Source of the DNA: Candidatus Nanohalobium sp.
GTDB taxonomy: Archaea > Nanohalarchaeota > Nanosalinia > Nanosalinales > Nanosalinaceae
Assembly (NCBI GenBank): GCA_042217545.1
Contig: JBDGSM010000017.1
Location: 4,755-62,487 of the forward strand
DNA length: 57,733 nucleotides
Reading direction: 5' to 3'
The number at the start of each line of letters is the position of its first letter. Position 1 is the first letter of the stretch. The notes under the pieces were generated by a model that worked only from the letters and a program-made list of their open reading frames with translations, searched no databases and had not been told where the DNA came from. A program made the position numbers and the translations under genes. Shown in pieces: positions 1-57,733 of the stretch.

Positions 1-1
1 T

Positions 2-1918
2 GATTGGAGATCTGGAAGCAAAAAGATTATCTTTCCTATGAGCGATGAATGCCCACAAAACGGAGGAAACAGCTGTGACCAGGCAGATAGAAACTCTGTT
101 GATTCAGCAAAAGCTATAGCCTCCAGCAACAACATAGAGGTCTACCCTGTATGGGGAGAAGGAACAAACAGCCAAGAAAGAGGACTTATGAAAGAACTCG
201 CTCAAGGAACAGGAGGTGAGGCCTCCTCCAAAGGAAGTGCCTCAAACCTTGCAGACTTTATCGTCGAGGCTGCAGGAGCAGGCGGAAAGAACTACGTTGG
301 AGGAGAGAGCACATGTACTATGCCTCCTGTAAAAACCTATGAAGGTTCTGCACAGATCGTTTTCGCTGCAGATGCTTCAGCGAGCTTCCCAGATGAATGG
401 AACTCTATATGCAGCAGGGTGCAGACAACTATAGATGAACTGGAGGCCAAAGGCCTTAAGACGAACGTCAGCATCTATGTCCCAGGTCAGCCAGGAGGCA
501 AGAATAATGGAGAGGGCGGCGCTATGAGCGGTTACGATTTCACAAGCGGAAATGTTCCTTCCTGTGTTGCCTCTGCTGAAAATAATGCGGTTTCAAGCAA
601 GTACGGTAAAGGAATTACAGAGTGGAACGGTACAGGCCTTGTTAATTATAAGCCCTCCAAGGATTTCGGGCTTGAGGCCTGGGGGGTCTTCTCTAAGTGG
701 ATCTTGGAGAATCATCAGTGGAATCAGAGCGCTGACAAGAGGATGATGTTCGTTATAGGAGATTACGATCCTACAGGTGGCGGAAGCACTAGCGACTTCA
801 GAACGATTGACGGTACAGATGTCCTTGATAATGAAACAGAAATTGTGAGAAACGTTACAAACCTGTCAGATAACAAACATGTCAATATCTATACTGTTGC
901 AGGCGACATGGAATACACAGGGACTGACATGTACGGAGATCCCAGTAAAAACGACGCAGTGGAACTTATGGAAAGAACAGCTTCGAAGACAGGCGGCGAG
1001 TTCATGAGATACAGTAATTCTGATCAGATTCCTAGCATGATAAAGAAGATGTTTGTAAGCTTCGAGAGCAGCGACAGCCAGGGCTCAAGAACATGCAGGA
1101 ACGCCACATATAATTTCGGGGAAATGCACGGCTCGAAAGCCACTAACACAGGAGGAATCCTGAGAAGTACATTCCCTGCCTCTATCAGGCAATCCGGAAA
1201 CCTTACAACCCCTGCTACCGTAAAAATCACGTTGAGACAGGGTTCAATTGAAAAACTGGCAGGCGGGATAAATAAGGCGATCAAAACAGGTAAGAGACTC
1301 AACGAGAACACGACAGTATACGTAAGTCTCAGTAACAGCAAGGCCTTAACTGTAGGAAGTCATCAAATCCAGAGGCAGGAAACGACAGATTATATACTTC
1401 AGAATCCAGGCGGGGACAAGGTGATCTCAGTCGATGATGACCTCATAATAGGTGTAAACGGTGAAAAAGTGTTCAGTGAGAGAAGCGGTGCTCCTTCAAA
1501 TATAGACTTTTCAAATCCTGCGAACCAGTTCAAGGCCTATAAAGGAGCTAGTTTACAGTTGATAGCGATCAACAGCAAGAATCCGAGCTTAAGACTGGAT
1601 AAGTTAGAACTAGCATGTGCTCCAGGAGAGCAATGCTCTGGCACTCAAACCCTTAATAACGCAACTATACAGGCCTCAAAGAACTCTAATCCTACTGAAT
1701 ATACAGAACTTGGAGGAATCGGCTCATTCTTCCACAACTTCACAACAGTCAAAATAGGGGAAACGAATACATTGACCAGAAAATCTGTTTGTTATGAAGG
1801 CTCAAATCAGTGCATAGCATTAAGGTCTAACAGCGTTCCAAGCCTGGAGATCAGGCCTGGAAGCCACAACATAAGAATAAAATACAGCCCAAGTAACGGA
1901 GTGACTATAGACAAATGA
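2..1918 (+). CDS. Adhesin-like protein with two von Willebrand factor A (vWA) domains, 5'-truncated by the window edge
   Basis: The frame is open from nt 2, with no stop before the ATG at 38. The first residues (KKIIFPMSDECPQNGG) read like the interior of a vWA fold. The second vWA has a MIDAS DxSxS motif (DASAS, nt 371-385) and downstream MMFVIGDYDPTGGG and VAGDMEY motifs. The stop overlaps the next ATG (ATGA at 1915-1918). Confidence 0.7.
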   Translation, partial: DWRSGSKKIIFPMSDECPQNGGNSCDQADRNSVDSAKAIASSNNIEVYPVWGEGTNSQERGLMKELAQGTGGEASSKGSASNLADFIVEAAGAGGKNYVGGESTCTMPPVKTYEGSAQIVFAADASASFPDEWNSICSRVQTTIDELEAKGLKTNVSIYVPGQPGGKNNGEGGAMSGYDFTSGNVPSCVASAENNAVSSKYGKGITEWNGTGLVNYKPSKDFGLEAWGVFSKWILENHQWNQSADKRMMFVIGDYDPTGGGSTSDFRTIDGTDVLDNETEIVRNVTNLSDNKHVNIYTVAGDMEYTGTDMYGDPSKNDAVELMERTASKTGGEFMRYSNSDQIPSMIKKMFVSFESSDSQGSRTCRNATYNFGEMHGSKATNTGGILRSTFPASIRQSGNLTTPATVKITLRQGSIEKLAGGINKAIKTGKRLNENTTVYVSLSNSKALTVGSHQIQRQETTDYILQNPGGDKVISVDDDLIIGVNGEKVFSERSGAPSNIDFSNPANQFKAYKGASLQLIAINSKNPSLRLDKLELACAPGEQCSGTQTLNNATIQASKNSNPTEYTELGGIGSFFHNFTTVKIGETNTLTRKSVCYEGSNQCIALRSNSVPSLEIRPGSHNIRIKYSPSNGVTIDK

Positions 1919-2841
1919 TAAAACACAAAGGAGAGGTCTCTCAGGCCGTCATAGTAATTGGAATACTTGCCCTGGTATTTATCACTGTTTCAACTGCTTA
2001 TTTAAGCTTGAACAAAGTAGAACTGCCGCAGGATCAGAATCAGGTAATCCAGGGAAATCATCTGCGGGTATCTGGTAAACTTGCTGCATTAGCGGATAGT
2101 TGCTGGCGGAAAGCAGGGAAAGGGACACGTTCAAAGGTGATGGACTGTTTTAAAGTCAAGGTCTACTCCAATGCGACCGTTACCGAGTCGAATATTTCCA
2201 GGGATCTTGAAGTACTATCCAGAAACAAGTTAGGCCTTACTGGAGGGCCTATACCAGACAGGGAAGTACGTTTAGAGGTGACGTACCTGCCTGTTGAGAA
2301 GAGAGTGAATATTTCTGTTATCAGTGTCTGCAGGCCTTCATCCGGAGATACATGTTTCTCGACTGCCTGCAGCTGTAAAACCGCCTGCGCGCCAGGTTTC
2401 GATCCGGACGGCGATGGAAGCCCTGAGACGAATGCCAAAGGATGTTTGAAGAGCTACAGCTTTACTCCTTCCTATAATCCATGCAGCTCATCTTCATCCT
2501 TAACCTGTTCGGACCCAAGTATATACAGATCCGGTACTAAGTCTGGCAACTACTTTACTTTCGATATAGGAAGTCACGTAGGCCTTTTGAACGTGACTCT
2601 GGTTAGTCGTTCAAGTAACTCTTTCTACGGGTTCCGTATGGCTGAAGCGGAAAATAGGATTTCTCCTAGAAAAGTAGTAGGTTACGGAAGCGTCGACAGG
2701 AAGCTGTTTACAGGCAAAGGAAACCTCAGTATCTCAGGCCTTCCTAATGGACAGTACGCGGCCTTTGTCTGGGGTTGTGATAAAGGCAGCATCCCTAGCA
2801 ACTGCAGGTGGTTAAGGCCTTTCGAGTTCGAGAAGAATTAA
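1915..2841 (+). CDS. Pilin-like secreted protein (short charged N-terminus, one hydrophobic helix, Cys-rich ectodomain)
   Basis: The N-terminus MIKHKG/EVSQAVIVIGILALVFITV resembles an archaeal class III (prepilin) signal. ATGA overlap with the upstream vWA gene. The C-terminal part is Cys/Ser-rich. Confidence 0.6.
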   Translation: MIKHKGEVSQAVIVIGILALVFITVSTAYLSLNKVELPQDQNQVIQGNHLRVSGKLAALADSCWRKAGKGTRSKVMDCFKVKVYSNATVTESNISRDLEVLSRNKLGLTGGPIPDREVRLEVTYLPVEKRVNISVISVCRPSSGDTCFSTACSCKTACAPGFDPDGDGSPETNAKGCLKSYSFTPSYNPCSSSSSLTCSDPSIYRSGTKSGNYFTFDIGSHVGLLNVTLVSRSSNSFYGFRMAEAENRISPRKVVGYGSVDRKLFTGKGNLSISGLPNGQYAAFVWGCDKGSIPSNCRWLRPFEFEKN

Positions 2842-2897
2842 TTAGGCGTTTTTTAATGATGAGTTAATTAAAGAAGCGTCGACAATGTTTTCTCCAT

Positions 2898-3452
2898 ATG
2901 AGTAAAGGCCTTGGAATCAAGATCATAGGAGGCATGACGCTCGCCCTTTTAGGAGTTTCTGTGCTGCTGGTCACTTTCTCCTCAAACTTTGGAGGGGGTT
3001 CTGGCGGTGTCTTCTGCAGTACGTATGAGAGCGTAAGTATAGTGTTCCCTGGCAAGAAATCTCCTCCGCCAGAGGGATGTGGGAAGAGCAGGACTATAGA
3101 TTACAAGGCTATCGAAGTAAGCAGCAGTGAAAGGCTTAGCCTCCGGCTTTCAAACGCAGTTCTATCGTGCTGGAACAAGTACAAAGGCTACAATACCTCA
3201 GGTGAGTTCTGCGAGGGCTGGAATATCAAAAAACTTCCAAATCCTGTAAACGAATCAAGTTTCACTCAGGAACTGAAACAGAACGGTTTATGCCCCAGCA
3301 GGATCGATAACAGCGTAGCAGAATATGGTTCAACGACATGCGGGTCCAAAAACCAGATATACTTTGGAGTAGAAAAAATTTCAGAGGGAGATTTCATCGT
3401 GATAGAGTACAACACGACATCTTCAGGAACTCAGAGGATAGAGGTGAAATAA
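2898..3452 (+). CDS. Pilin-like small secreted protein
   Basis: The N-terminus MSKG/LGIKIIGGMTLALLGVSVLLV has a KG followed by a hydrophobic helix. Same strand and operon context as its neighbours. Confidence 0.55.
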   Translation: MSKGLGIKIIGGMTLALLGVSVLLVTFSSNFGGGSGGVFCSTYESVSIVFPGKKSPPPEGCGKSRTIDYKAIEVSSSERLSLRLSNAVLSCWNKYKGYNTSGEFCEGWNIKKLPNPVNESSFTQELKQNGLCPSRIDNSVAEYGSTTCGSKNQIYFGVEKISEGDFIVIEYNTTSSGTQRIEVK

Positions 3453-3453
3453 A

Positions 3454-4358: not shown

Positions 4359-4876
4359 GAAACTCTAAAGGCCTTTCCACTTCTGTATGGATCTGGATAG
4401 TCGGAGGGCTTGTCGTTGCTTTGCTGACGTTTACCGTGACCTTTCAGAGCCTTGTGAACGTCGGTAACACAAGTGCCAGGAACAATGTTGTTGATCAGTT
4501 CGGAGATATCAGGAATACCGCAAGGCTTTACTGCATGAGAGGAGAAGGTTCTCTTACAACCAAGACAGTTTCTCTCAGCGGAGTGAGGGCGGTTTACGCA
4601 GCTGATTCGAAAGGTAACCCTGATCCCCGAGTTCCTAACTACATCTCCGAGGGCCAGACAAATACCGGCAAGTACATGTGCCTGAAGTTTGAGAACAGCG
4701 CTAACCCGTACAACTGTGTGAAGATGCGGTGCCAGGTCAATATGACCTACATCGGTAAGCCTCTGAAAGGCTCCGACATGTACATCCTTGGAAGAAAAGA
4801 CGGCAGCTTCGAATTCAAGCTCACGATCAAGAAGCTCGAAAACCAGCTAAGAATCAATGCCTCACACGTACCTTAA
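4352..4876 (+). CDS. Pilin-like small secreted protein
   Basis: MLGNSKG/LSTSVWIWIVGGLVVALLTF is the best class III signal-like match in the cluster (KG then LSTS then a hydrophobic helix). It overlaps the previous gene by 7 nt. Confidence 0.6.
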   Translation: MLGNSKGLSTSVWIWIVGGLVVALLTFTVTFQSLVNVGNTSARNNVVDQFGDIRNTARLYCMRGEGSLTTKTVSLSGVRAVYAADSKGNPDPRVPNYISEGQTNTGKYMCLKFENSANPYNCVKMRCQVNMTYIGKPLKGSDMYILGRKDGSFEFKLTIKKLENQLRINASHVP

Positions 4877-5679
4877 CTCCCAGTACTCGAGTAACGCGAA
4901 AGACCGTAACTCCAGAAACCATAGGCAAGCAAATAGAAAAACGGACCTACTACAAGCGTAAGGCCTTGAAAGACTGCAGGAGCTTCTTTTCCAAGCAGAA
5001 ATGTAGCCGGATAGAATGAGGCAAACGCTATCGGGAAAGCAGCCGTGAAAAAGGCCTTTAGAGTAGCTGAGTATATGGTGAGAGGGTACTTTCTGAAGCT
5101 TGCAAGGTCGTAGAAAATCCTGAAAATCGATTTTGTTCTACCTGTCCAGAAACCTGTAGTCGCAAATACGAGGAAGACAGATCCCACTGTCAGTACACCG
5201 CTGATCATCGCAAGTAGAAGGTAAACAACCTTGAAAGGAGTAAAAACAGCAACTTCAAGGTGAGGTAAAGTATAAGCTATTAATGCCAGGCTCGCAATGA
5301 TATCGGAAACTGCAAATGTCTGGATATAACTTCCGTATACCTGGAAAAGAACATTTAGAGGCCTTACTTTGTAACGGTCCAGCCTGCCTCGTACAATATA
5401 GTGTTCTCCAAGTGAGAAAGGCCCGAATCCGAAAAATCCGTGGATGTTCAGTATCAGCCGGCCTACACCTGTTAAAAACAGCAGTTCATATATACTCCAT
5501 CCCTGGAGGCTTTCGATCTGTGTAAAGATAAGGCCTATGAAAGCTACCGATGCTGCCAGGCTTACAAGCTGGTTCACGCTGCCCAGAAGGAAATCAGTCT
5601 TGTAGACCAGCTTGGTCTTTATGAACGTGATAAAGAACTTCCTGTAGGTCCTCCAGTGCCTCTTAACTTCTTCAAACAT
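4873..5679 (-). CDS. ABC-2 family transporter permease (COG3694-like), copy 2
   Basis: 268-aa polytopic membrane protein. It is a paralogue of 6506-7345, with the same N-terminal KxxL(V)YK(T/A)DF motif and the same C-terminal YSSTGS. Confidence 0.8.
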   Translation of the reverse strand: MFEEVKRHWRTYRKFFITFIKTKLVYKTDFLLGSVNQLVSLAASVAFIGLIFTQIESLQGWSIYELLFLTGVGRLILNIHGFFGFGPFSLGEHYIVRGRLDRYKVRPLNVLFQVYGSYIQTFAVSDIIASLALIAYTLPHLEVAVFTPFKVVYLLLAMISGVLTVGSVFLVFATTGFWTGRTKSIFRIFYDLASFRKYPLTIYSATLKAFFTAAFPIAFASFYPATFLLGKEAPAVFQGLTLVVGPFFYLLAYGFWSYGLSRYSSTGS

Positions 5680-5685
5680 CTTTTT

Positions 5686-6474
5686 TCAACCTCCCTGTAC
5701 AGTTAGTTTTGTCCTAGCTTTTTTCCACGCAAGATGCGCTACAATGAGCAGTACAAGAACCCAGGCGAACTGTAGGCCTAGAATTTTCACTGCTTCAAAA
5801 CCTGTTTTCTGCATCAGAAATATCTGTATCGGGCCGTCCACCATGTACTTGAAAGGAAGCAAATTGAAAACCAGTGAAAGATCAGGTGGAAGGAGATAGA
5901 GAGGAAACATGACTCCAGAAAACAGCTTCTGCACAGTACTCCTGACACCTCTGATGCTCCAGTCCACTTTGGTCCAGAAGATAAGCATGGATGTAGTATA
6001 AGAAAGCAGCATAACCAGGTTAAGGCCTAGAAACAGGCTCAAACCGAAGTAAAAAACGTTAAGGCCTTTCGGCAGCTTTACCTGCAGGTAAAATATACCG
6101 AGTAAAAGTACAGGTAGTGCCCTGGTGAAGACCCGGAAAATCGCTACTCCCAGTTTCTTGAAGTAGGCCTGGGAGAACAGTGAAATCGGCCTCTTCAGCT
6201 CATTGACTATAGTGCCTTTTCTTACCCTCTCGCCTATCAATCCCTCTATACTTATGAACAAAGCTCCAGATACGACCTGCCCTACCACGATGTAAGTCAT
6301 TACCTGTGTCAGGCTCGAACTTAGGGTTCCAGAGGCTGCTATGGCCTGCCAGATGTAATAGTAGAGAACAATATAAAGCACCGAGGATACAAGGCCTGTA
6401 GCTGCATCTAGCCGGTATGCGGAGGCCTCTTTGAATCCTATCTTGGTTAGCTCCCAGTACTTGGCAGTATTCAC
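5686..6474 (-). CDS. ABC-2 family transporter permease (COG4587-like), copy 2
   Basis: 262-aa polytopic membrane protein. It is a paralogue of 7349-8131; both end in LAW(K/R)KA(R/K)TKLTVQGG. Confidence 0.8.
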   Translation of the reverse strand: MNTAKYWELTKIGFKEASAYRLDAATGLVSSVLYIVLYYYIWQAIAASGTLSSSLTQVMTYIVVGQVVSGALFISIEGLIGERVRKGTIVNELKRPISLFSQAYFKKLGVAIFRVFTRALPVLLLGIFYLQVKLPKGLNVFYFGLSLFLGLNLVMLLSYTTSMLIFWTKVDWSIRGVRSTVQKLFSGVMFPLYLLPPDLSLVFNLLPFKYMVDGPIQIFLMQKTGFEAVKILGLQFAWVLVLLIVAHLAWKKARTKLTVQGG

Positions 6475-6505
6475 AGTTACAGAAGAATTTTCCGGCAGGA
6501 AGGTT

Positions 6506-7345
6506 TTAACTTCCTGTGCTCGAGTAATTCGAGAGGCCTACCTTCCAGAAACTGTAGGATAAAGCGAAAAGAATCGGTCCTGCTGCTATCGAGGCTAACT
6601 GCCAACTTCTCCAGCCTTCTCTTCCGAGGAAGTAAGTCGCCGGGAAGAACGAGGCAAAGGCTATCGGTATCACCGAGACCAAAATGATCTGGATAGTTGT
6701 GGAATAGATACTATAGGGATACCGTCTGTACTCGCTGAGCCGGAAGATCAGCCAGATAGCGCTGCGGGATTTACCTGTCCAGAAACTTGTCGTCGCAAAT
6801 GCCATGTAAGCTGCTGCGAAGACTAGTACTCCGGATGCTAGGAAAGCTACCCCAAACAAGAGGTTCGAAAGTGTCAGTAACTGGAGGCCTAACTGGTTCG
6901 CCGAATAAATTATAAGAGCCGTGTTGGCTATCAGTTTGGAAAGATTGTTATCAGAGACCTCATCCGCATAGACCTGGAAAAGCGGGCTGAGAGGCCTTAC
7001 AAGGAACCTATCCATCTTTCCCTCTACCACATAATCCTCCAGGCTGAACATGTTGAACAGGAAGATATGATGGAAGTTCATTATGAAACCTCCTATGCCT
7101 GCGAGGAAGAGCATTTCGTTGAACGTCCAGCCGTTGATAGTCTCAACCTGTGTGAATATCAAGGTTAAGAAGGCCAGCGAAGCTCCAAGGTTCACTAACT
7201 GGGCTACAAAACCTACTGCAAAGTCCGCCTTGTAAACCAGCCGAGTTTTCCAGTACTGCTTGAAGTAGTACCAGTAAATCGATAGATACTTCTTCAAAGC
7301 TCCAAACTTGGATTCTTCAACCGTAGGTGTCTTTGTCTCCGGCAT
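6506..7345 (-). CDS. ABC-2 family transporter permease (COG3694-like), copy 1
   Basis: 279-aa membrane protein, paralogous to 4873-5679. It lies 3 nt downstream of the preceding permease gene. Confidence 0.8.
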   Translation of the reverse strand: MPETKTPTVEESKFGALKKYLSIYWYYFKQYWKTRLVYKADFAVGFVAQLVNLGASLAFLTLIFTQVETINGWTFNEMLFLAGIGGFIMNFHHIFLFNMFSLEDYVVEGKMDRFLVRPLSPLFQVYADEVSDNNLSKLIANTALIIYSANQLGLQLLTLSNLLFGVAFLASGVLVFAAAYMAFATTSFWTGKSRSAIWLIFRLSEYRRYPYSIYSTTIQIILVSVIPIAFASFFPATYFLGREGWRSWQLASIAAGPILFALSYSFWKVGLSNYSSTGS

Positions 7346-7348
7346 CTT

Positions 7349-8131
7349 TTATCCCCCCTGTACCGTTAATTTTGTTTTAGCTTTTCTCCACGCAAGCTCT
7401 CCAAGTACCGCGATAACTATTATCCAGAATACCTGTAGGCCAAAAATATTCAGTATCTCTCGACCGGTAGCCTCCATAGTAAAGATCCTGATAGGTGCAT
7501 CAGCCATAGCCTGGAACGGAAGTAAATCAAATACCGAGGCAAGACCTCCAGGCAGGAGATATAGCGGGAACAGGACCCCTGAGAAGACGTCCTGGATGTT
7601 TGATCTCATAGCTCTGATCCCCCAGCCGATCTCCGTCCAGAAAACAAGCATCGAAGTCAGGAAAGAGAAAGCAAACACTAAATTGAAGCTCAGGATTAAA
7701 GCTACGATAAATCCTGCAGCATTCAGTGGTGTAGGAGTCTGCATATCCAGGAATAGAAGGCCTATCACAAGTACTGGAAGGCCTTTTGTTAAAGTGTTGA
7801 AAAGCATTTTTCCGATCAGATAACAGTAGATCTGAAGTCTAAGCGATACAGGCCTCTTTAATTCGTTGACTATGGTTCCTTCTCGTACTCTTTCTGATAG
7901 ATAGCCTTCTACTTCTGTAAACACCGAGTTCGATATTACCTGTCCCAGGAGAATGTATGTGAGGACTCCTGAAAGCGGTACTGCGAGCTGTCCGGATGCA
8001 TCTATCGCCGTCCAGATAGCATAGACCATGATCAGATAGAGAATTGATGCGACCAGCGACATGACTGCATTGAACCGGTAGGCCGTCATCTCCCGGAATC
8101 CCATCCGGACGAACTCCAGATACTTCCCCAT
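7349..8131 (-). CDS. ABC-2 family transporter permease (COG4587-like), copy 1
   Basis: 260-aa membrane protein directly downstream (2-nt gap) of the ATPase gene. Paralogous to 5686-6474. Confidence 0.8.
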   Translation of the reverse strand: MGKYLEFVRMGFREMTAYRFNAVMSLVASILYLIMVYAIWTAIDASGQLAVPLSGVLTYILLGQVISNSVFTEVEGYLSERVREGTIVNELKRPVSLRLQIYCYLIGKMLFNTLTKGLPVLVIGLLFLDMQTPTPLNAAGFIVALILSFNLVFAFSFLTSMLVFWTEIGWGIRAMRSNIQDVFSGVLFPLYLLPGGLASVFDLLPFQAMADAPIRIFTMEATGREILNIFGLQVFWIIVIAVLGELAWRKAKTKLTVQGG

Positions 8132-8133
8132 AA

Positions 8134-9117: not shown

Positions 9118-9180
9118 GAATAGAACTTTCTAGAGAAGTTTTAAGAAAACAGACATTGCCGGGAAGTGACTCATCATTTT

Positions 9181-9465: not shown

Positions 9466-9468
9466 GGC

Positions 9469-12054: not shown

Positions 12055-12106
12055 ACCCGGAATCTTTCTTTAACTCCGGTTTCGTACAGAAATCCTGTTA
12101 GGACCT

Positions 12107-12643: not shown

Positions 12644-12680
12644 GTTTTGATTAAAAACGATAAGGCCTCAAACTAGGTTT

Positions 12681-51800: not shown

Positions 51801-52750
51801 TCGTATCAGGATCGACAGGATCCGGTAAATCCGTCACCGCAAACGTGATCGCGGAAGAAGCACTTGAAAACGACGTACCGGTAATCGTGTTCGATCCTAC
51901 AGCGCAGTGGACAGGATTCGTAAAGGAACTCAAAGACGATGACCTCGAGGAACACTACGACAGATTTGAAATGGATCCTCAGGAGGATTCAAAGCCTTAC
52001 AGGGGAGTCATCAAGGAGGTAAGCTCGGCAGAACCGGATATCAACTTCGAGGACCTGCAGAACGAGGGAGAGATCACAGTATTCACACTCAACCAATTGA
52101 CAACTGAGCAGTTCGATGAAGCAGTCAGGAATATAATCGACCAGATATTCGACAAGGATTGGGAGGAGAGCCCAGACCTGGAGATGCTTGTAGTCTTTGA
52201 CGAAGTGCACAGACTGCTGGAGGAATACGGTGGAGAAGGAGGTTACGAAGCACTGGAGAGAGGAGCCAGAGAATTCAGAAAATGGGGAATAGGCCTCATG
52301 ATGTGCAGCCAAGTCACAGCAGACTTCAAACAAGCCATCAGCGGAAACATAATGACAGAAATACAAATGCAAACCAAATCCATGGAAGACATAAACAGTG
52401 TAGAGAAAAAATACGGCGAGGAGTTCGCCAAGAGAATCTCCTCGGAAGACGTGGGTACGGGAATGATACAGAACTCGAATTACAATGATGGAGAACCATG
52501 GTTCGTCGACTTCAGGCCTACCTACCACAACCCACACAAAATCCCAGACAGCGAAATGAAAAAATACCACAACCTCTCCGAGAAACTTGACAGTATCAGG
52601 AAAGAGCTGGACAGACGGGAGGAAGAAGGAAAGGACCTGAGAGACAAGGGGCTGGAACTCCAGCTGGCCGAAAACAAACTCAAGGAAGGCAGATTCAAAA
52701 TGGCAAACATGTACATAGACAGCCTCAAAGACGAGATGGATCTAGGATGA
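27833..52750 (+). CDS. Giant (8,305 aa) multi-domain surface adhesin-like protein ending in a TM helix and a cytoplasmic HerA/FtsK-type ATPase domain
   Basis: A single stop-free frame of 24,918 nt. The N-terminal signal peptide is KRAVAILLVILLIGTVAG/HS. Domain grammar is consistent along the whole length; see the domain features and findings. Confidence 0.85.
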   Translation: MGLKSSGKRAVAILLVILLIGTVAGHSLKILDTSNSFRTSQGKSNWTVSFNSSQTGKLKIEILQGSSKIDFDKLQYKLSGKWNDRSYNVSGNTLTTNWDGNHPEGRIAFSVQKYGRYRANISIGGREVSVGNPSKAEQQNFGFDVSDPTNSFNLCALTNNFWKCNPGPEEPGASGKVVNLNPEVQKKFKVPRNSKINHFSIKLSTVEGRPVLNLTGQGTLFTDIASNNLKEILTYQGQNINAYNSSGNKIWTYNANNTINNIKSGNEIIQGNKKEVLAATKNSTLMIDHQGNLTWADRGNEYYHIAAGELSSERKTYRNDDGKAEGLACIGCTNETVIQLPYNITTGNGTYYIKTALNKYKNSGDLKLKANGTTYDIDESRIEEKAVREFKNDSGKIEDMAEIGPGNITFQAFKPNLKAKDFYLKLPLARASSTTSDLKLEISGSKYSIPSGEVSSVVDPNFTYSTQSSAEALRNIGNGEAVYKTGFDPGSNTSIYVGGRFNSIGSNADIKVKLNGTSYTIDGSDISVNNIKEFKADDGKADGSSRLKASTNSTFNLHYSMPSDINSEKVYVKAGFTYSGDKSGNPFVKAGGSKYYFPKSQITETSDVTRYVNDNQRDNYSCIGCNSSNQRAPVFDLSALNVSTLKAENARISARMCSVGNRVDDLKLSGVGLGSNVYNVNVSKIHACSKGFQDVKIPVQPGDLAEDNFIFRCSNCNKTSYYRLASDNSTGGKYSQYLVGGAPTGISSDYMINVTTDTSLNYSWAEAAVPDTAVNQGDNVTIGCDGCSGSSSYRLMTDGSNSGNSYYFNNSLKKISSDYMTRIWTNTSLNYDTAYTRVNSSDIGPNTNISFSSTGNYNILVDKNNSGNSYYAGNPLNGEYKTRIEERPVNYSYTKIKINESELNADNATLSCQNCGSSYYIGLEPSSGLKISGTADFIGKKDFGADARVWTNTSLEYDTIRTPVNWKDLGKDVNVSYFCQGCSGKAFNVLIDNNSNSSSWKYSNGYRGLNGGLMSSVEFYGSNPGDEIVGSRLFPSAIVAMDSSGNQLWNYSTSEMTYSVNIGPVVPNSIGNEVVIATKKKIRILDSSGNVLKTYPSGSSKWFRATTLEDLNSDSKDEIVTGTDSGHVIALDQNLSVIWNQGVGSKVNGLTSGNLSKSPGPEILAGLQDSSLVLFNSSGQQIQSYSRPEAVTNLESGNVLTRPGQEIGVSTSQSRLFNFYNLPEDLYLSSGGNQLWNGSGLFTGTKTVSNSSIVQGMNNQLSGCGTKSCNLSFTLGSSTGGKVLLSDPELDFTYNLSDTYDYTTNVTKWAKTSGFSSDKKLMYKASRIKYTQTPAIPIRVNRIFLPGGVGTTKVVFNNNSFQNNAYSLDLPRSLRYWRFNFLGTRPTDYIWYNSSKKASPISVTKGNLTGSSPASRNVTVARATEKTDVTFRNVTVNIPVNTSEVVKDAFLKADWNGDGNYVNITPSETGCSSFRNVTGDTRTWKVCKTVNGNGKVDEFRIVQPEIGNSSSTHNETVYKLAGITNIAPTLNRLDVSPSSTYWGQDFNFTSDFSDAEGNSLNASLWLKKDSNWTKKASSQFTGSHNFTLTSDRNWTGAVDYKVSYYDVKNGSRLHDAVNSSTESFVVEAHDTNVSYRYGAGLELDRTGETGKLGGVVYDEDDGGKLNSYTSDLYCFLYMNGTAQSVTKINGTGYCSFSLADLKRDLGLYNWHIQTYSSKGYFKKSNSATKNLTLLGNFTVDTNFSKRTAFRGNGTVKYSYENIQDALGNSVSPTYNVTWGSANNLTVEGTQQLSGSSVSGTFTGITDTTPLGLTPMKLNPRQENFNNESFVKQVRVLGLITPNLYPSKNTVFPKNDLVNLTARLRDRQSNQITQASVDFNTPPGFCTATYQNRNVYKCQYNPDNSLAAGTYNWSIDATRQNYRLNDTKSQINVGTGIRADSNVTTGTVYRYSKASGSNTVYYNVTDIRDDTGQLDNVSWKALWEGSIIQSGKTNSTGFNFSYTVPENQNPGSKTAKLKLEKTGYRKYTDTSTVDVDGSINASLETRPNENLTATLRDMKDNPISGSSVTFHTPPGQCLKKYSIGNKYYCEYNADQGLSKGQYRWNISVNDPDYSYQQNKSANISIQSQISANLTLQSGPYYRANSSTSNPTNPSLQIANSNPSSVNYTISLGGKTVASGQVSGGSKYLTFNVPDTASLGTQTVTINLKKNGYEDLTKTFGREIRGTLTADLYQAEDVFRNNSVTRNNYNLTTNLKANITNALGQQVGGLSTSFNIPGGECITSYSNSYNYSCTYDPNILASVGNQTWSVTASAAGYEPVTSNQGSFYLKNVIRPDFLSSGEGYRRDRTKSLKVQALNPSDNSVDASYTSSYYIGPDYLGGNSGTGTVSFSWSPSCTRSVGGYTIDANITSNDPRYEVYQGQDSGNISVRADLNLNISSPLNSSVSGKNYQQGSNVNLATDLATQCGDPVNMSGTDIIWKASDRDTTKIISSGKTASWNIPESFTGETNITAYGDNYYYVGGSDTNKILIERVLNINTTGGFTDKLRTFGGSYDYPFSAEIITGDGKKAYNSSLNENWNKFNISFYVDGNKVKELRTDSQGSVNTTINLGSQYNPGTHTLKAYLENTTAINTTILNDKYTKDIKLTDQASVDMSRPKSGQKSYGQEVNLISSINTATGNENALNIDYNWIFKDNDTQRYISSSKVSSWIIPSYAYGPGNISVVAQNDYLTTATNTTDVTVNRKTNIEKYDPYKYVEPDTVNKLNATIDIPGLQNKSGYKVTFWTGSYSNQHTVKTGPNGTATYKWNTSGLSKGAYNTGVFIKDAPPSYFKAVDPKSVNRTLVIPDKLNISAYYRDNNEENANGNNFPNLPDKVVYRNPGPWKNPDKIFLAANVTTPFANSGDKYDVENATVDFWINGTSDNGQQITEKIGQDNVNLTAFQQGLNDNKDQWWDEYTAHTSWNPRGNLPVGAYNLKINATHPVPGFNPDPIRRPLEIRGVLNITITDPPAWEDTYQMDNLTFSAQVEDMNGNDIPVSSLDQAIWTLQEDGCANSGDAGASGWSAGTFDWSSAIAHGPKTGSLSSWIVMGNTGYYNIGGGELVWLNAEKQYFNVTRNEYRRGFTDCSAVHHQEDGPKGQINSQFEGDREDRVGIQHDMRARTESVVSEPSQTEVATNNRDMLNITARYYEFNTTQGLPNDFEGTYHATCKECTQSKNKNLSQSAYSYRDQDVAQFRFNFSNEKYRKNYTFTIWATSSDSDFGAVDPYATDSREYRVYKSLGSGTGSVNINGKCENGETAVSAPPDCGFDNLPEHYWLNQTADPGINASDKNPASNDTQYNEFRNTSSPAYENNKAWYAAHSHYSSEYAGGCDFDGKEDDKYEEPDVCPDYFSSDNKPQIKSTQVNPPYVKSGNQANVTAKVRDIDGDLQSVDLIDKSTNSKVTSMSTTSGSCTTYCTFTTTITVSSVKTYYVKAQDSANNTATGNNVDARTDDNPVNITNVTVLGQDPRKKNANLDVDMNVSNVDIPGGATPDSIKEANIEGKTPYVLKHGSNWAVLEQTITADPNDETVNVNVTEYPGYQDSATATYNVDNTIPNVTNEQVTPSLVKNGDKVNFTATITDNALDREYIKRTDNGNKVCTNSSFTNTGGDTYKCSINAPYKTGSFTYRFYAMDKADNTNDSETVTLSVDSHPPEITGLSSDKYIRPNQTVTISANVNDVEGHLDSAMLVTMNQFYNDSMNVVCDDQEFQGSCQVSPNKSTDYMIYANDTLGNENLNFSQDYVEVKVDEFKPNVELQNQETNFSGTVNIKARVNDTPPEVANGGFEQGNTGQWKFTQSSTNITNGTGYCTDDNGDGTSYCAFFDGSVYPKTTAQNNITGQKADRIAGKSVEFSGSLWGERNNFGLETDSSKASYKEYGGEDDARFHIKAWDGSNNLIKDKKGVWASHYTSNRTSGEMTNVSNGFKVPSSAKTISVQLDGGDLQGSAANAYDSFFDSIKLGPSNLDTSSVKYAFSNSSGNYTSSGAGFGSLPHDTGNNFSTSVDTTGLEDGYYMLTVKASDAVNNQAIYRKEVKVDNEPPEIDFRENISRKAKITVSDGSNQKKITLRPGIEKYPVSFSGTSGSATLDILMNSSTPLETGLINSLVLKASDGSVIRNISTESQWDQGSYSGLSTDGRTSSALGLGSQNGSSGDSLVGYWRFNRKVSGKGGTIPDSSGNSNKATLLNGSDITGDGIYSTNSVDLNGINQSVRADKSADLNSSSLTFSTWFKMDRNLTCSSNNNWRSFAHKGSSTSGSNRGWDIVLEEGGATAFDVNGTRWWPDSFHDEKVGYPLDEWHHYTYTYKASTGRMAFYKDGKLIDYYYKEPGPIRPAASQLKIGGGTDTGCPSGSGYVPGSYDEVQVYDQALAKSQIQDLYSKTSNAYKGTYTDSFSTSKAVKSIEVNTDNLWNSRVQNTETFNISIFDELLNDDPSTYKYRINGGSYQSIQNLGNSSFSATKDTTGLSNGWNSIEAKASDTEGNTGTKRFRFFVDNQNPSISAISANTSITNGDTVGLSADISDSSLNASSVNFTLINATDQAFEKDPSESCDYTSSKLSCSSAWTPSGLKDGSYNFKVHASDLMGHKASNQDPGESFYLDTKKPNITSSGINDSFVQSSQNLLVWALANDDHNVSTVKAEGYSLSEQPAGNWSSVIPVTDGVVNLTVKDVAGNKKSYGNLNYTIDDKRPQISGLTSNASADFAQGDQVVRFELNASDSHMRSVGLKNRSSGKYVGMVNGSKQTWYLKIRPKQLGLVEQEYNLTARAIDKADNLRKDYYNITIDNSPPRIKKVVLNDTVIRSNTEIAVNATVNDRAPDWVNANGVNLSQNGNLWKGTINVNLSTENPVNVTAEDLAGNFNSNASVGYTIDNTAPTISAFVSNASSGVTRSDAELRFNVSTSDANMRNVTVQGEGLTQGSPWFLKATPGSLGCATGVADQNCTLTAKSTDKADNTQSRDLNITVDDVRPDVGNFTSNVSIIRPGSAVYFTADIDDANVRNVTVRNSTDTVCEMTRVSGTNYSCSTQLYNSSDYFVDALDLAGNVNDTQSVNIETDTTPPRFLSFGSNATYNASRSGANLNFTAVAEDLRLEKVSIGGIKASNLSSTYSLVRTPGELGCPTTGESVCGISFYAEDVPGNSKNRTYNLTVDNIDPDINLVKIDDQIIQSNSTVKATVNVSSETDTDLEYVKAEGQGLTWNGSLWTGNIKVDNDGYVNASTKDKAGNTDLNESVQYIIDDQAPNAYSFNSNTSQDVSRSDKVLNFNLNANDNYQLRDVKIWNKTSGKKLDMTNTGGTRYAVNTTPASLGCPEGVNRKSCDLTVTATDRADNKANTSYTLTTDDIAPDIQDINFNDTDTVVKPNKTLKTNLTLVDDKQSTISELKVENQSISQKSKNSTGGLKSIWEGSITIDNDGFLNITARDQAGNTNTDNSTEYIVDDTSPTIQNLNTNSSNGVIRSDQTLNITVNASDRYNLSSVTVNGLNMHKTGKWIWNRADTAGDLGCTTDGNCELQAKAFDQAGWNSSTRKYLKIDNTNPNVGTLTALNASDGSPDAALGKWNLDWRLFNTTDATNLTVKLYAINGTTGKSTGGNTTVLKQFNQTSYRTVKRPVYFNATNGTYTLVANVTDEAGNRVNTTYRLAITAQPPEIPDAWASNKRPEEDREKATIKANITDTNEIDTTKMTILNTGKTFTNLTLLQPATGNRTGGIYGVDYTPPDNGYYNISVTGIDGTDERRTEEFDRVFKAIGKTSGNLSMNAQRTVFDNITQNYTGRTPVDVNFTNTGLAGSYQTSIQPALVQAGVTTNSTGKNCGRVDNGSSCQATILINVSPQASPGTKRVAEFADWVNPDGTNASISDTLGLTVKKNPVLKLRKDKISKDVWWNQKVNVTNLSAYSFGNYKLKNVTATVSQSYLNNSATNNLLGSYYRFFGEGNNVSKDETGNSSFQVQIPDKGRYIFELKSKASNNQNCGGNQCSDTKVVDLDVFRKTDVNFLTSPGEKYRGSNYLQARVVNGEGNNVNGYTVGFYDNGSLIQNVSMSGGLADFNWNTEQKQLGFHNLTARIWDDESNHFRTIDSTESVGVTLNDSLQISRDINDRDMYWYDNQTDHNVTLNYTVRNRNGYSVENATVSLISNSSDKFKHVGSCRTDPNGKCNITWNTNVSTPVNATIRSKAYKNRYYDNSTTNDSIVEIKGGFSVEIGVPDTGLNWKNDTDLIVGRNQYLKALITDENGTSVTPNNINWTINTSSGYKQIGNSKNLTWTVSGVSTGPHELNVSTETQQGVKTSDTVNVGVYEPVDISVNSVSPGNTERKNSTVQINANVTNTRTGNPLDGYRCKLSDQSEGEFINSTQSLSSGLCTMTWNTEYTDFVGTHNLRIDIPENRTGTWYLPVKNSAETRSVTLTEKLNLSVQKPRGIIHRYTSQDLQAEARNAYNKTSATIEWRHGGSNVQPNGTGKQGDWNTSGLSLGAYRLNTTASKPQYTSDLVRNNLTVYGYSKVNFNESGLYTSGDRINLSFRAEDVNTTTGIADYPVQVYRKYENGSYKAWRNGTTGSSGWYNTTWNTTNDSIGDYKLKADISDNSTLYYNNTNSNVTRSFFVGGTLNLNITGLSKETVYRDQLTEPSETVIEANVTNGGIPVSNAAKVEFDFSGKKIGECLTNSTATTGLCNITWNPGSDRKVGVQNITAQASADNYFNSSKARRQIEIRTGIRPYFRDKKETASFNFSSKQGLNITPQVIETFTGDGVGNYNFNLGYGDRKDDIEVETSKKAWSNDSATLADMNSSLAISGTSTVNVSAEDREIITLNVSKATENFSLGFRRNSSWKQAFKGSFNGTRNLEIPDGKIKALNISTSGNITLESLKLVDTDLANRKELMRRRILGQFGNSRMNFENSKPHNDYSRCMNSGSCVLNGTYVGTEPGFNDSVEGSRTPGVFSGKALLANITNMSANDSVSIRRPYLEYYPGEKNFSSSDLLSFWIQSDIPFNMTVEDGPDGSGVCSYRESYNSTDLWELKQYNLSEYREQCGVGVAQISWNFHHRGTGNVSTLVGLDQVSKLTPAKTNVNGTRNLELLPGKTGQYDFKLGIKQSGFYNLSQSTAFKTININTGRGRKSVAGKKIGGETQRKEIAPTGQVNTTDFWVEPDYINATVAAETYGTFGKATIYNNKTKDLFLQLYEGNRADLLDVQDNVTVKASTPRTQELHDVGLGFNSSQPGTYNGTVTFFDPATRNYDTVNVTLNVRNIIMNIVNTSAEHGRDNITSGDTITAYANVTYNNTKQISDAGWKASIQGDKCSNVNSKYINSTGLWKISCSAPGIKKNPVNVSYELTALKDNLEIKARKGLKYRDVTPPFVVSKTGDNVRQGENATVRLEAVDNVGIDNVTGTGIYLGNSTKVGNVSFSKVNGRYVGNLTHTGSKGDYDVKARLEDVNGHTRTVRIPVSVFPFVNFTGSMKDMKADFRFQRPSSNTTLIDASTDESYNLKVQNRSYDVNIDVQPDRPEKVGEPVHNIEFINTSVKGNMTDPVSVSPVENGNPVNFQHPSGTTNNTFTGVSINSSFNFSKATITLNYSNNEDFDEADENNLRVFKCEYGAAGKCNTSDWRQLNTTINITENTVKSSTNSTSSYIVERLYTPNNNQGGNQGQQNKNKKKNKNGGFPGGLTGNGKNSNQSKQDNKSDIAKEPFILSPHIFQPIMFRGDERTFLLKIENNREKTINLNMSIEGELRKLLGPKHSSMNISANSTAVTELRASIPEDAKIKTYTGQIIAQYGNVTVNSSQSILVSRKGSEGFHLNVKALTKNVEPGSNFSFQTKINKITLETPLQVNMTHYFRESDTDKVILKLNNSFKVSDSKTIKRKISTKDIPSGSYYVQTVAKAGNTTVVDSATVVIKESFWTPLKTRALILIIAVILISVLGWKGYQYYWTKKEEEARYVFPVDYNRLPDEIEDNYWVGKIAETEKDAYIDPSDLTTHAIVSGSTGSGKSVTANVIAEEALENDVPVIVFDPTAQWTGFVKELKDDDLEEHYDRFEMDPQEDSKPYRGVIKEVSSAEPDINFEDLQNEGEITVFTLNQLTTEQFDEAVRNIIDQIFDKDWEESPDLEMLVVFDEVHRLLEEYGGEGGYEALERGAREFRKWGIGLMMCSQVTADFKQAISGNIMTEIQMQTKSMEDINSVEKKYGEEFAKRISSEDVGTGMIQNSNYNDGEPWFVDFRPTYHNPHKIPDSEMKKYHNLSEKLDSIRKELDRREEEGKDLRDKGLELQLAENKLKEGRFKMANMYIDSLKDEMDLG
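30890..31500 (+). other. Beta-propeller-like repeat region (FG-GAP/PQQ-like blades) inside the giant protein
   Basis: Repeated blade-like units: GDEIVGS..VAMDSSGNQLWNY, GNEVVIAT..ILDSSGNVLKTY, KDEIVTGTDSGHVIALDQNLSVIWN and GPEILAG..LVLFNSSGQQIQ. Confidence 0.55.
39262..39825 (+). other. CBM4_9-like carbohydrate-binding (jelly-roll) domain inside the giant protein
   Basis: It starts with the hallmark ANGGFEQGNTGQW, ends with ...FFDSIKLGP, and is about 185 aa long. Confidence 0.5.
40386..41060 (+). other. LamG / concanavalin-A-like lectin domain inside the giant protein
   Basis: LVGYWRFN...IPDSSGNSNKATLLNG...LTFSTWFK...WHHYTYTY...MAFYKDGKL...YDEVQVYDQAL is the Laminin_G_3 pattern. Confidence 0.6.
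41716..44503 (+). repeat. Tandem array of about 85-105-aa Ig-like domains in an alternating A/B di-domain super-repeat (about 5 copies)
   Basis: Domain boundaries carry [VIT]D[ND]xxPx[IV] motifs at nt 41716, 41971, 42265, 42524, 42806, 43075, 43358, 43618, 43927, 44219 and 44503. Confidence 0.7.
51584..51640 (+). other. Single C-terminal transmembrane helix of the giant protein
   Basis: ALILIIAVILISVLGW is followed by the positively charged KGYQYYWTKKEEEAR, consistent with positive-inside topology and a cytoplasmic downstream domain. Confidence 0.7.
51670..52747 (+). other. HerA/FtsK-superfamily (DUF87-like) P-loop ATPase domain of the giant protein
   Basis: Walker A GSTGSGKS (nt 51809-51832), Walker B LVVFDEVH (around 52188-52211) and the REFRKWGIGLMMCSQ segment typical of HerA-like ATPases. 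Confidence 0.7.
52232..52722 (+). repeat. 491-bp perfect direct repeat, copy 1 (3' end of the giant gene)
   Basis: Identical base for base to 54106-54596 (offset 1,874 nt). A further 17 identical nt follow a single C/T mismatch at 52723/54597. Confidence 0.9.
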
Positions 52751-57258: not shown

Positions 57259-57336
57259 TATATCTTCTATCTATTGCTCTGTTACAAATCCAAAGCCTAG
57301 AACACATTTTTAAGCTCCAGACATATAAGTTCGAAT

Positions 57337-57576
57337 ATGAAATCTTTAGTAGAGCTTTTTGTAACCTCCATCGGTATATTCATCGTCGCTGTAGGGATAG
57401 CAGTGTTGGATTCTAGTCTTATTCCCGGGTTATCAGCTTACCGAACTCCTCTGGCTATTCTTATTATCTTACTTGGAGGATCGATTGGAATTTACGGCCT
57501 CGGACTCAACTCCGATGAATCAAAGAAAGATAGGCTCCTTGACTTTTTGGAAGCCCTTCTACAAGGAGCGCCTTGA
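57337..57576 (+). CDS. Small two-helix membrane protein
   Basis: 79-aa hydrophobic ORF flanked by a 25-nt direct repeat. Confidence 0.45.
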   Translation: MKSLVELFVTSIGIFIVAVGIAVLDSSLIPGLSAYRTPLAILIILLGGSIGIYGLGLNSDESKKDRLLDFLEALLQGAP

Positions 57577-57599
57577 TAGGACCTCTAGAAAACCTAAAG

Positions 57600-57624
57600 G
57601 AAAGACTTTAATCCACGCAGATAG
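57600..57624 (+). promoter_or_regulatory. 25-nt direct repeat copy 2; probable enolase promoter (TTTAAT box about 28 nt upstream of the ATG)
   Basis: Perfect match to 57234-57258. The spacing to the ATG at 57638 fits a leaderless archaeal transcript. Confidence 0.45.
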
Positions 57625-57637
57625 AAAGTTTTCTACA

Positions 57638-57733
57638 TGAAAATAGATTCTCTCAAATTAAGAGAAATCATTGATTCAAGGACCAAAACCACTGTAGAAG
57701 CCGAAATAAACGGAAGCTACGGTAAAGCACCTT
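57638..57733 (+). CDS. eno: Enolase, 5' fragment (continues beyond the window)
   Basis: MKIDSLKLREIIDSRTKTTVEAEINGSYGKAP matches the enolase N-terminus pattern (REILDSRGNPTVE). Confidence 0.7.

Follow-up and report, generated by a model that had tools for sequence, protein, structure and literature searches.

AGGCCT as a candidate highly iterated palindrome in certain lineages of the Nanohaloarchaeota

Hyper-abundant palindromes have been known in cyanobacteria for thirty years, and whether they are maintained by biased repair or by selection is unsettled, in part because one of them, HIP1, is almost universal in that phylum. The cyanobacterial highly iterated palindromes (HIPs) co-occur with cognate methyltransferases, and a ratchet based on methylation-biased repair has been proposed for them (PMC4390886); other authors favour selection, with a part in nucleoid structure or DNA uptake (PMC5861425; 10.64898/2026.06.24.733823). 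Over-represented restriction-modification sites proved rare and mild in a systematic survey, at about 1.4-1.5 fold (PMC4687349). The hexamer AGGCCT is known from Photorhabdus, where it is methylated as AGGC(m4C)T (m4C, N4-methylcytosine) by an enzyme of family PF01555 (PMC6092372). A literature search found no paper linking AGGCCT with nanohaloarchaea, with DPANN archaea or with hyper-abundance of any kind. Here the distribution of AGGCCT was analysed in a 57,733-bp stretch of contig JBDGSM010000017.1 (GC content 49.2%), referred to below as the window, and in the corresponding loci of related genomes; the best reading of the results is that AGGCCT is a HIP-type palindrome in an archaeon. The window carries archaeal genes for strongly acidic proteins. 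Its PCNA is 79% identical to that of Ca. Nanohalobium constans and 91% identical to that of Nanohaloarchaea archaeon SG9, and on the latter match the window is assigned to a genome of the Nanohaloarchaeota. Two Logan assemblies hold contigs 99.7% identical to the window, which is therefore not a one-off assembly product.

An earlier reading of the letters alone (the sequence-only reading) had estimated about 214 AGGCCT sites where 13-14 were expected, a roughly 15-fold excess, divided as about 120, 80 and 14 among positions 1-27728, a giant open reading frame (ORF) at 27833-52750 and the remainder. Exact recounting gave 214 sites (3.7 per kb, mean spacing 267 bp) with the same division, 14 of them lying elsewhere. 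Expectation was 12.9 sites from base composition (mononucleotide model), 14.4 under an order-1 Markov model (observed/expected ratio, O/E, 14.9) and 40.8 under an order-2 model (O/E 5.2). AGGCCT ranked first among hexamers under both Markov models and was also the commonest hexamer outright, the runner-up being CAGGAA with 114 occurrences. Its share of all GGCC tetramers, put at roughly two thirds in the sequence-only reading, was measured as 214 of 351 (61%), and the other words of the form NGGCCT or AGGCCN occurred 6-28 times each. A ratio near 1 in a maximal-order Markov model had been named beforehand as grounds for abandoning the claim of excess, and that model did return 1.11 (214 against 193 expected). 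The ratio is uninformative here, however, because the two pentamers on which it depends consist mostly of the hexamer, which supplies 214 of the 267 AGGCC and 214 of the 254 GGCCT occurrences. Sub-words lying outside the hexamer (53 AGGCC, 40 GGCCT, 137 GGCC) predicted 15.5 sites. The sign is opposite to that of restriction-site avoidance, as had been claimed, with 214 sites seen and 13-15 expected.

Among the 14-mers centred on AGGCCT, 209 of 214 were distinct, and the flanks were at background composition without conservation or periodic arrangement. A repeat-family origin (repetitive extragenic palindromes, miniature inverted-repeat transposable elements or tandem repeats) was thereby rejected, and with it the proviso that the excess might consist of copies of a repeated element. 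Extensions of AGGCCT to 7 or 8 bases had O/E values of about 1, so the motif is exactly six bases long. The copies arose each in place, by point substitutions.

The sites occupied all three codon phases, with 47 read as AGG|CCT, 71 as xAG|GCC|Txx and 91 as xxA|GGC|CTx, and were about equally dense in genes on the + strand (3.70 per kb) and the - strand (3.99 per kb). Gene calls were longest-ORF heuristics corrected with Pfam. The excess is thus limited neither to one phase nor to one dipeptide, and the claim that it extends over all phases and both orientations was borne out, as were the three codon phases that had been quoted as examples. Arg-Pro dipeptides were mostly spelled AGGCCT, as had also been noted (47 of 56, 84%). 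Non-coding DNA of the window (1,764 nt) held four sites against 0.28 expected. Three spacer sites had been quoted in the sequence-only reading; those at 12663 and 21407 are intergenic, and the one at 11165 is intergenic only if the XPB gene starts at an internal Met. The example sites and the intergenic sites are as follows.

1853..1858, + strand: phase 0 example, AGG|CCT (Arg-Pro); 47 such sites.
219..224, + strand: phase 1 example, xAG|GCC|Txx ([E/K/Q]-Ala followed by a residue with a T-initial codon); 71 sites, 70 of 106 possible contexts used.
451..456, + strand: phase 2 example, xxA|GGC|CTx (x-Gly-Leu); 91 sites, 91 of 124 possible contexts used.
12663..12668, no strand: intergenic AGGCCT between the Endo_dU gene and the next gene.
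16775..16780, no strand: intergenic AGGCCT exactly filling the 6-bp spacer of two convergent genes (TAA-AGGCCT-TCA).
21407..21412, no strand: intergenic AGGCCT 10 bp downstream of the S27e gene.
22782..22787, no strand: intergenic AGGCCT between the eIF2-alpha and PAC2 genes.

Two codon-aware null models were compared with the 209 sites observed in coding sequence. Shuffling synonymous codons within genes produced 38.5 +/- 5.5 sites (maximum 54), and shuffling codon order produced 17.4. Of the amino-acid contexts in the window that can spell AGGCCT synonymously, 208 of 286 (73%) were used, the fraction being 0.80 in housekeeping genes, 0.70 in the giant ORF and 0.67 in surface and hypothetical genes; the value for the giant ORF indicates that the pressure covers this fast-evolving surface gene too. 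Codon usage outside the motif was unchanged, with GGC making up 0.25 of Gly codons outside Gly-Leu in the window and 0.27 in non-enriched relatives (described below), and GCC 0.22 and 0.23 of Ala codons, respectively. Where coding constraints rule out the full hexamer, xAG-GCC had a usage of 0.15 (baseline 0.13), and GGC-CTN following residues that have no A-ending codon was modestly raised (0.35, baseline 0.17, from 37 contexts only). Since codon usage is unchanged and incompletable contexts stay at or near baseline, the force sees mainly the complete word rather than its parts, which is the behaviour of a reader resembling a Type II enzyme and not of a mutational or dinucleotide bias. An artefact of composition or codon bias was rejected on the Markov models of orders 1 and 2, the expectation from outside sub-words, both shuffles and the unchanged Gly and Ala codon usage.

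Contexts differed in how readily they were converted. In the window, [E/K/Q]-Ala-Leu was seldom converted (4 of 27) even though only a synonymous CTR-to-TTR change is needed, about 90% of the contexts with Tyr, Phe, Trp or Cys after Ala were converted to AGGCCT, and the rare ATA and CTA/TTA codons were freely used before Gly-Leu.

Spacing of the sites in the window was roughly exponential with a short-range deficit and more even than Poisson (coefficient of variation 0.86), only 18 pairs lying less than 60 bp apart where about 48 were expected. Across 11 enriched loci, neighbouring potential sites separated by 9-40 bp were used together in 22 cases where 57.8 were expected, each distance bin giving a p of about 1e-6, and no effect was seen beyond about 60 bp. 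Such short-range interference has not previously been described for motifs of this kind. Candidate causes are a protein footprint, the reach of a repair signal, or a need to avoid GC-rich 6-bp hairpins when DNA or RNA is single-stranded.

Relatives were sampled as about 20 kb around the PCNA gene from 49 genomes of GTDB, together with N. constans LC1Nh and a genome of the N. occultus type, recognised by its PCNA. Each was read over 5-20 kb only, and enrichment status was judged from those loci. AGGCCT was enriched 9-22 fold in SG9, a metagenome-assembled genome (MAG) labelled Nanohalobium, M3_22 and a relative, Ca. Nanosalina VS9-1, NHA29 and five further MAGs; one additional MAG, L032, was weakly enriched (about 5 fold). 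About 35 other nanohaloarchaeal genomes were at chance level, including J07AB43, J07AB56, the cultured N. constans LC1Nh and the N. occultus type. When 12 enriched and 22 non-enriched loci were pooled, 68% of opportunities were used in the former and 8% in the latter, an odds ratio of about 30 per potential site. Opportunities were themselves about 60% more frequent in enriched loci (15.6 against 9.8 per 1,000 amino acids). Arg-Pro had an O/E of 1.75 in enriched and 1.18 in non-enriched loci, and the share of [E/K/Q]-Ala followed by a residue with a T-initial codon was 44% against 25%.

The surplus of opportunities extended into conserved proteins. In 11 conserved genes, 14 of 34 window sites fell in contexts usable by fewer than 20% of non-enriched relatives, and parallel replacements recurred in separate enriched clades. 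Site-linked replacements included Arg-Ala-Tyr to Lys-Ala-Tyr in XPB, Lys-Pro-Gln to Arg-Pro-Gln in primase and Val-Pro-Asp to Arg-Pro-Asp in PCNA. A further site lies in the eIF2-alpha gene:

22575..22580, + strand: AGGCCT site in the eIF2-alpha gene, AAG|GCC|TGG (Lys-Ala-Trp).

At this position 20 of 24 non-enriched relatives have Thr-Ala-Trp, and enriched relatives of the window's clade have Lys- or Glu-Ala-Trp, three of them with AGGCCT; the aligned sequences tie the replacement of Thr by Lys or Glu to the creation of the site. The pressure therefore uses about 70% of synonymous opportunities and also pushes amino-acid replacements through in conserved proteins. As the sequence-only reading had argued, it acts on DNA rather than on protein: sites fall in all phases, in both orientations and in non-coding DNA, the excess survives codon-aware nulls, Gly and Ala codon usage is unchanged and amino acids are altered. 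What it acts on is the whole double-stranded hexamer.

Sites were kept at orthologous positions beyond the neutral expectation, and only among enriched genomes. Window sites were shared with SG9 at 58 of 82 positions, where about 17 were expected from per-base identity (77% at the nucleotide level), with the enriched relative L041 at 21 of 30, with M3_22 at 22 of 48 and with VS9-1 at 13 of 30. Three non-enriched relatives (L006, L013 and L018), as diverged as the enriched relatives other than SG9 (71-73% nucleotide identity), shared 1 of 42, 1 of 28 and 1 of 39. At the window's sites these three differed about equally at all six positions, often by transversion (CGGCCG for AGGCCT, for example).

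Several relatives showed further features of their own. GGCC was depleted in the non-enriched loci L038 (NHA25, JALDAJ010000001.1; 11 against 49 expected), L172 (LC1Nh; 11 against 32) and L028 (12 against 34). AGGCCT itself was present there at 0-2 copies per 20 kb, a pattern that resembles restriction avoidance directed at a GGCC-type site. GDGCHC was found 0 times in the 20.7 kb of CP180231.1, which fits the published GDGCHC restriction-modification system and its low count in Ca. Nanohalococcus occultus (PMC10266531). Contig JBLGBK010000003.1 (86.8 kb), deposited as 'MAG: Colwellia polaris', encodes a nanohaloarchaeal PCNA (78% identity), aligns with several window genes and joins two nanohaloarchaeal MAGs (L008 and L009) in the tree described below. 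Contig CAZENJ010000098.1, from a 'Thermotogae' MAG, encodes an archaeal PCNA (38% identity). Both look mis-binned or mislabelled.

The distribution of enrichment was followed on a tree of 11 concatenated proteins (distance-based neighbour joining, 2,908 columns, 200 bootstraps). Enriched taxa were monophyletic in 0 of 200 bootstraps, and clades mixing enriched and non-enriched genomes had 82-100% support. VS9-1 and NHA29 are nested in a 100%-supported clade with non-enriched genomes of the J07AB43 type. The window, SG9 and a further relative, L004, are sister (82%) to the non-enriched Nanohalobium group, and these together lie in a 100% clade whose other branch is enriched. M3_22 and its relative L010 pair with a non-enriched MAG (88%). 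Three or more distinct nanohaloarchaeal clades are thus enriched while their sister lineages are not, a pattern that needs at least three gains or several losses.

Two intermediate states on this tree would point to a direction of change. In M3_22 and L010, 57-66% of opportunities were used at an opportunity density near baseline (11.5 per 1,000 amino acids), and this state looks young. In L032, opportunity density was raised (13.5 per 1,000 amino acids) and use was only 22%, which looks like decay of a former enrichment. The M3_22 lineage (L010 and L011) had 2.4 AGGCCT per kb and also a 2-5 fold rise in one-sided 5/6 matches (AGGCC with A, C or G in the last position, counted on both strands). 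There, in contrast to the window's clade, even contexts unable to complete the hexamer reached a usage of 0.37 (baseline 0.13). Among one-off variants, AGGCCC/GGGCCT stood at about three times the non-enriched level in the window, AGGCCG/CGGCCT below it and the inner variants about equal to it, and in the M3_22 lineage all three outer variants were 2-5 times higher. The reader in the M3_22 lineage may be less strict, or different.

The genes of the window to which the results refer are listed here.

4873..23624, no strand: conserved housekeeping block (ABC-2 transporter, XPB helicase, Endo_dU, TFS, PCNA, primase, GINS, L44e, S27e, eIF2-alpha and PAC2), the basis for the ortholog comparisons; 80% of AGGCCT opportunities used.
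21224-21397: S27e gene.
23817-27728: surface protein of 1,303 amino acids, rich in Asn-X-Ser/Thr, divergent from and upstream of the giant ORF.
27833..52750, + strand: giant SPEARE-like ORF of 8,305 amino acids with an immunoglobulin-like domain and a C-terminal HerA/VirB4-type ATPase; 80 AGGCCT sites, 3.2 per kb.

A second HerA-type ATPase gene (625 amino acids) overlaps the 3' end of the giant ORF by 4 nt, and by its gene content the region 27833-54624 is identified as a SPEARE-type secretion locus of the kind described for nanohaloarchaea (PMC10266531). A gene for an Endo_dU (PF01949) deoxyuridine endonuclease (12107-12643, + strand) adjoins the replication genes. The primase ORF (18098-19489, + strand) has a clear match to the small subunit (E 2e-6) and a weak match to the large subunit (E 0.002, below the Pfam cut-off), and may encode a fused PriS-PriL.

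Three of the properties by which HIPs are recognised are present in the window: at least 15-fold over-representation of a short palindrome (214 sites against 12.9-15.5 expected, the top-ranking hexamer), single copies dispersed within and between genes with no longer repeat, and orthologous conservation (58 of 82 sites with SG9 against about 17 expected). The on/off pattern and the reading of the whole word together point to a discrete factor, acquired and lost in evolution, whose target is the entire palindrome and which would read it in the all-or-none manner of Type II restriction-modification enzymes. The likeliest switch, to which we give somewhat less than even confidence, would be an orphan methyltransferase of StuI specificity producing AGGC(m4C)T. 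In this scheme the methyltransferase would be the lineage-specific factor, and a newly arisen complete AGGCCT would become methylated and then be favoured, either because mismatch correction or gene conversion is biased by methylation, as Elhai's ratchet supposes for the HIPs of cyanobacteria, or because methylated sites serve a cellular function. In a REBASE survey the enriched M3_22 has a single Type II methyltransferase, of the m4C class, without an endonuclease and without a Vsr, and the non-enriched LC1Nh is without an m4C enzyme (PMC10609329).

Several points weigh against the orphan methyltransferase. The correlation between gene and trait consists of one enriched genome (M3_22) and one non-enriched genome (LC1Nh) in a published table, and the m4C enzyme of M3_22 could be of the CTAG type, acquired from haloarchaea. 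No gene for a DNA methyltransferase, endonuclease or Vsr was found in the window, by Pfam scans of the called ORFs except the duplicate ABC-2 permease genes (6506-8131), SelR and short ORFs, or in the nanohaloarchaeal loci read, by methyltransferase motif scans of six-frame translations of about 50 loci. Elhai's ratchet presupposes strand-directed repair of the MutS/MutL type, which nanohaloarchaea would have to possess, and the interference range of about 40 bp is far below the roughly 1 kb that his model predicts. Divergence data cannot separate biased repair from selection, and in the HIP1 case Xu et al. argued for selection (PMC5861425).

Presence or absence of the window's genes in enriched and non-enriched loci was also compared, and nothing tracked enrichment. 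Two methyltransferase genes of the window were rejected as the determinant, both being present in both groups and outside the DNA-methyltransferase families: a class-I S-adenosylmethionine-dependent enzyme (Methyltransf_11/25; 16781-17575, - strand), which is missing at the syntenic place in SG9, and an MTS/PrmA-type enzyme (11203-11808).

A wider proposal, which we consider improbable although worth stating, is that AGGCCT would be a methylated 'self' tag that certain nanohaloarchaeal lineages have placed densely in their own chromosome, setting their DNA apart from host haloarchaeal DNA that enters via the cytoplasmic bridge, and that its determinant would be mobile and switched on and off several times within the phylum. 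If so, the tag would spare the symbiont's own DNA from a nuclease that scavenges host DNA, or would direct uptake or recombination within the species, and it would be the first genome identity system in Archaea resembling HIPs or the DNA uptake sequences (DUS) of bacteria.

The main rival, a form of which the sequence-only reading had listed and to which we would allow a real though clearly minority chance, dispenses with methylation and regards AGGCCT as a selected recognition site with a small benefit per copy, either for an abundant lineage-specific binding protein (nucleoid organisation or protection) or as an identity tag (uptake, recombination or nuclease control, as with DUS, the uptake signal sequences (USS) and Chi). 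Conservation of orthologous sites among enriched genomes is the argument that was used for selection on HIP1 (PMC5861425). The interference at 9-40 bp (22 against 57.8) and the evener-than-Poisson spacing would fit a protein footprint, and the strength of the pressure is moderate rather than deterministic (odds ratio about 30), with [E/K/Q]-Ala-Leu rarely converted (4 of 27). The enrichment of 5/6 matches in the M3_22 lineage is what graded affinity predicts; in the window's clade, however, incompletable 5/6 matches stay at or near baseline, as is typical for restriction-modification enzymes but would be unusual in an ordinary DNA-binding protein. HIP1 has been linked to genes for DNA uptake and type IV secretion (10.64898/2026.06.24.733823), and the window has a locus of the VirB4/HerA type, but the SPEARE/VirB4 locus is also present in non-enriched nanohaloarchaea (PMC10266531) and does not track enrichment. 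Selection would have to act individually on about 4,000 sites in a symbiont genome of about 1.1 Mb, a palindrome, being the same on both strands, cannot encode the direction that Chi or the FtsK orienting polar sequences signal, and no candidate binding protein has been identified.

Pressure imposed by the host is much less probable. Here a methyltransferase, nuclease or repair proteins of the haloarchaeal host would reach the symbiont's DNA through the cytoplasmic bridge, and the patchy distribution would reflect host association and not genes of the symbiont itself. Host switching would also be expected to give a clade-level on/off pattern, exchange of methyltransferases between nanohaloarchaea and hosts has been proposed with some methylome evidence (PMC11001535), and no determinant was found in the symbiont DNA examined (the window and the nanohaloarchaeal loci). 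For AGGCCT the idea is nevertheless purely conjectural; enriched genomes come from sites as different as Atacama halite, salterns and Danakil, and only a very steady supply of the host enzyme could hold saturation at about 70% across long evolutionary spans.

A very-short-patch drive of the Dcm/Vsr type, proposed in the sequence-only reading, fares worse still. In such a drive AGGCCT would carry 5-methylcytosine (m5C), a mismatch endonuclease or glycosylase would turn T:G into C:G, and sites would accumulate. An archaeal precedent exists in Methanothermobacter, where M.MthTI (GGCC, m5C) is accompanied by the T/G glycosylase Mig.MthI; the enrichment produced by very-short-patch drives is about 1.3-2 fold, however, against 15 fold here. 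The excess is phase-independent, which would fit such a drive, and CCWGG in E. coli shows a mild excess of this kind. The model predicts depleted deamination neighbours, a drive confined to a single position and a C-to-T hotspot. The deamination neighbours were nevertheless undepleted, AGGTCT/AGACCT having an O/E of 1.41 and AGGCTT/AAGCCT 1.49 (1.38 and 1.07, respectively, in non-enriched relatives). All six positions are driven, A1 and T6 included, and the changes include transversions (CGGCCG to AGGCCT, for instance). Where enriched pairs differ at one base of a site, the differences are spread evenly without a C-to-T hotspot, their spectrum being that expected of synonymous transitions. Moreover, the only AGGCCT methylation so far characterised yields m4C, a base whose deamination does not give T (PMC6092372), and no Vsr is listed for M3_22 in the REBASE survey (PMC10609329). 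A motif acting in RNA or translation (AGGCCU in transcripts as the site of an RNA-binding protein or RNase, or a codon-pair effect) is scarcely credible, for although equal density in both orientations would also be expected of an RNA motif, the word being its own reverse complement, and avoidance of pairs 9-40 nt apart could reflect an avoided 6-bp GC-rich mRNA hairpin, the three phases are similarly saturated, which speaks against a codon-pair effect, sites also fill non-coding spacers including the 6-bp gap of convergent genes, and no Rfam-style structure or flanking conservation surrounds them.

Clustered AGGCCT was also looked for elsewhere by scans of IMG/VR and metagenomes, a procedure biased to tandem repeats and chance clusters. 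The scans returned mostly such matches and only two contigs from halophiles, both from ERZ1034573 and with acidic proteomes, one with 63 sites in 14.9 kb (L187) and the other with 17 sites in 6.5 kb (L231). Both probably represent further enriched nanohaloarchaea, and neither showed a methyltransferase signature when scanned for motifs. A dispersed, non-repeat excess of about 5-9 fold, inflated by the ascertainment of clustered sites, was seen in four sequences from non-halophiles: a prophage of the HK97 type (L110; IMGVR_UViG_2791354938_000002) with a terminase 52% identical to its counterparts in Lactobacillus delbrueckii phages, a phage encoding DnaB (L160; IMGVR_UViG_3300030392_001562) and two metagenome contigs (L250, Ga0247780_1000064, and L261).

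The nanohaloarchaea offer a natural experiment, with sister lineages at about 70% and about 8% saturation and with apparently young (M3_22) and decaying (L032) states. Complete genomes are available on both sides, SG9 (CP012986.1), M3_22 (CP046106.1) and VS9-1 (NZ_CP180230.1) being enriched and the non-enriched ones including that of the cultured LC1Nh (CP040089.1); N. occultus is also cultured. Since sister lineages differ and complete genomes of about 1 Mb exist, the causal gene should be findable by presence and absence, and the mechanism testable. Parallel replacements in central proteins of replication and translation can be driven by a DNA word of 6 bp, which matters for DPANN phylogenetics and for models of protein evolution. 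AGGCCT density could also serve as an easily scored marker when nanohaloarchaeal contigs are binned or checked for foreign DNA.

Among known systems, the same 6-bp word is read by the plu1934/plu1935 restriction-modification system of Photorhabdus luminescens TT01 and by StuI-type systems, and the former shows that a PF01555 N4-cytosine methyltransferase can read exactly AGGCCT (PMC6092372). There the methyltransferase has an endonuclease partner and AGGCCT is strongly avoided (184 sites in 5.7 Mb), whereas here it is 15-fold enriched, which argues for an orphan enzyme or for another kind of factor. The CCGG site of Helicobacter pylori is likewise a restriction-modification palindrome over-represented without explanation (PMC4687349), but at about 1.4-1.5 fold rather than about 15 fold. 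The Dcm/Vsr system of E. coli (CCWGG) is similar in being a sequence-specific, methylation-linked repair bias that shifts oligonucleotide frequencies regardless of frame; it differs in acting from T to C at one position only, with depletion of the T-containing neighbour and a mild overall effect, none of which was seen for AGGCCT. The DUS of Neisseria, the USS of Pasteurellaceae and Chi are also over-represented short words that mark 'self', lie within genes and bias amino-acid usage. These words measure 8-12 nt, are not palindromic, depend on orientation, reach at most about one copy per kb and are served by known uptake or RecBCD machinery, whereas no such machinery tracks the enrichment of AGGCCT. 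Identity with DUS or USS was rejected, AGGCCT being a strict 6-mer palindrome without extension whose close pairs are avoided and not favoured.

The closest resemblance is to HIP1 (GCGATCGC) and the alternate HIPs of cyanobacteria (GGCGCC, GCCGGC and GCSGC), each a short GC-rich palindrome in at least 15-fold excess and singly dispersed (PMC4390886, PMC5861425). Like AGGCCT, they are found between genes as well as within them in every frame, show conservation of sites between orthologs and occur sporadically among related genomes, and their cause is likewise disputed, methylation-biased repair and selection being the candidates. The alternate HIPs share the hexamer length, and a cognate methyltransferase is known for each. 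HIP1 proper, with its Dam-like and CGATCG methyltransferases, was rejected as an identity, the word being GCGATCGC in cyanobacteria and AGGCCT here in an archaeal DPANN episymbiont. AGGCCT reaches about 3.7 sites per kb against about 1 per kb at HIP1 saturation in Elhai's model (PMC4390886), using about 70% of synonymous opportunities with clear remodelling of amino acids. Its interference extends over about 40 bp, while the periodicity reported for HIP1 is 10-90 kb, and its one-off variants in the window's clade show no consistent bias to the outer positions of the kind seen with HIPs. If AGGCCT is methylated, the mark is probably m4C rather than m5C. Relative to the known HIPs, what is new here is the occurrence in Archaea, the different word, the higher saturation, the protein-level effects, the short-range interference and the patchy distribution, the last of which makes the cause experimentally tractable.

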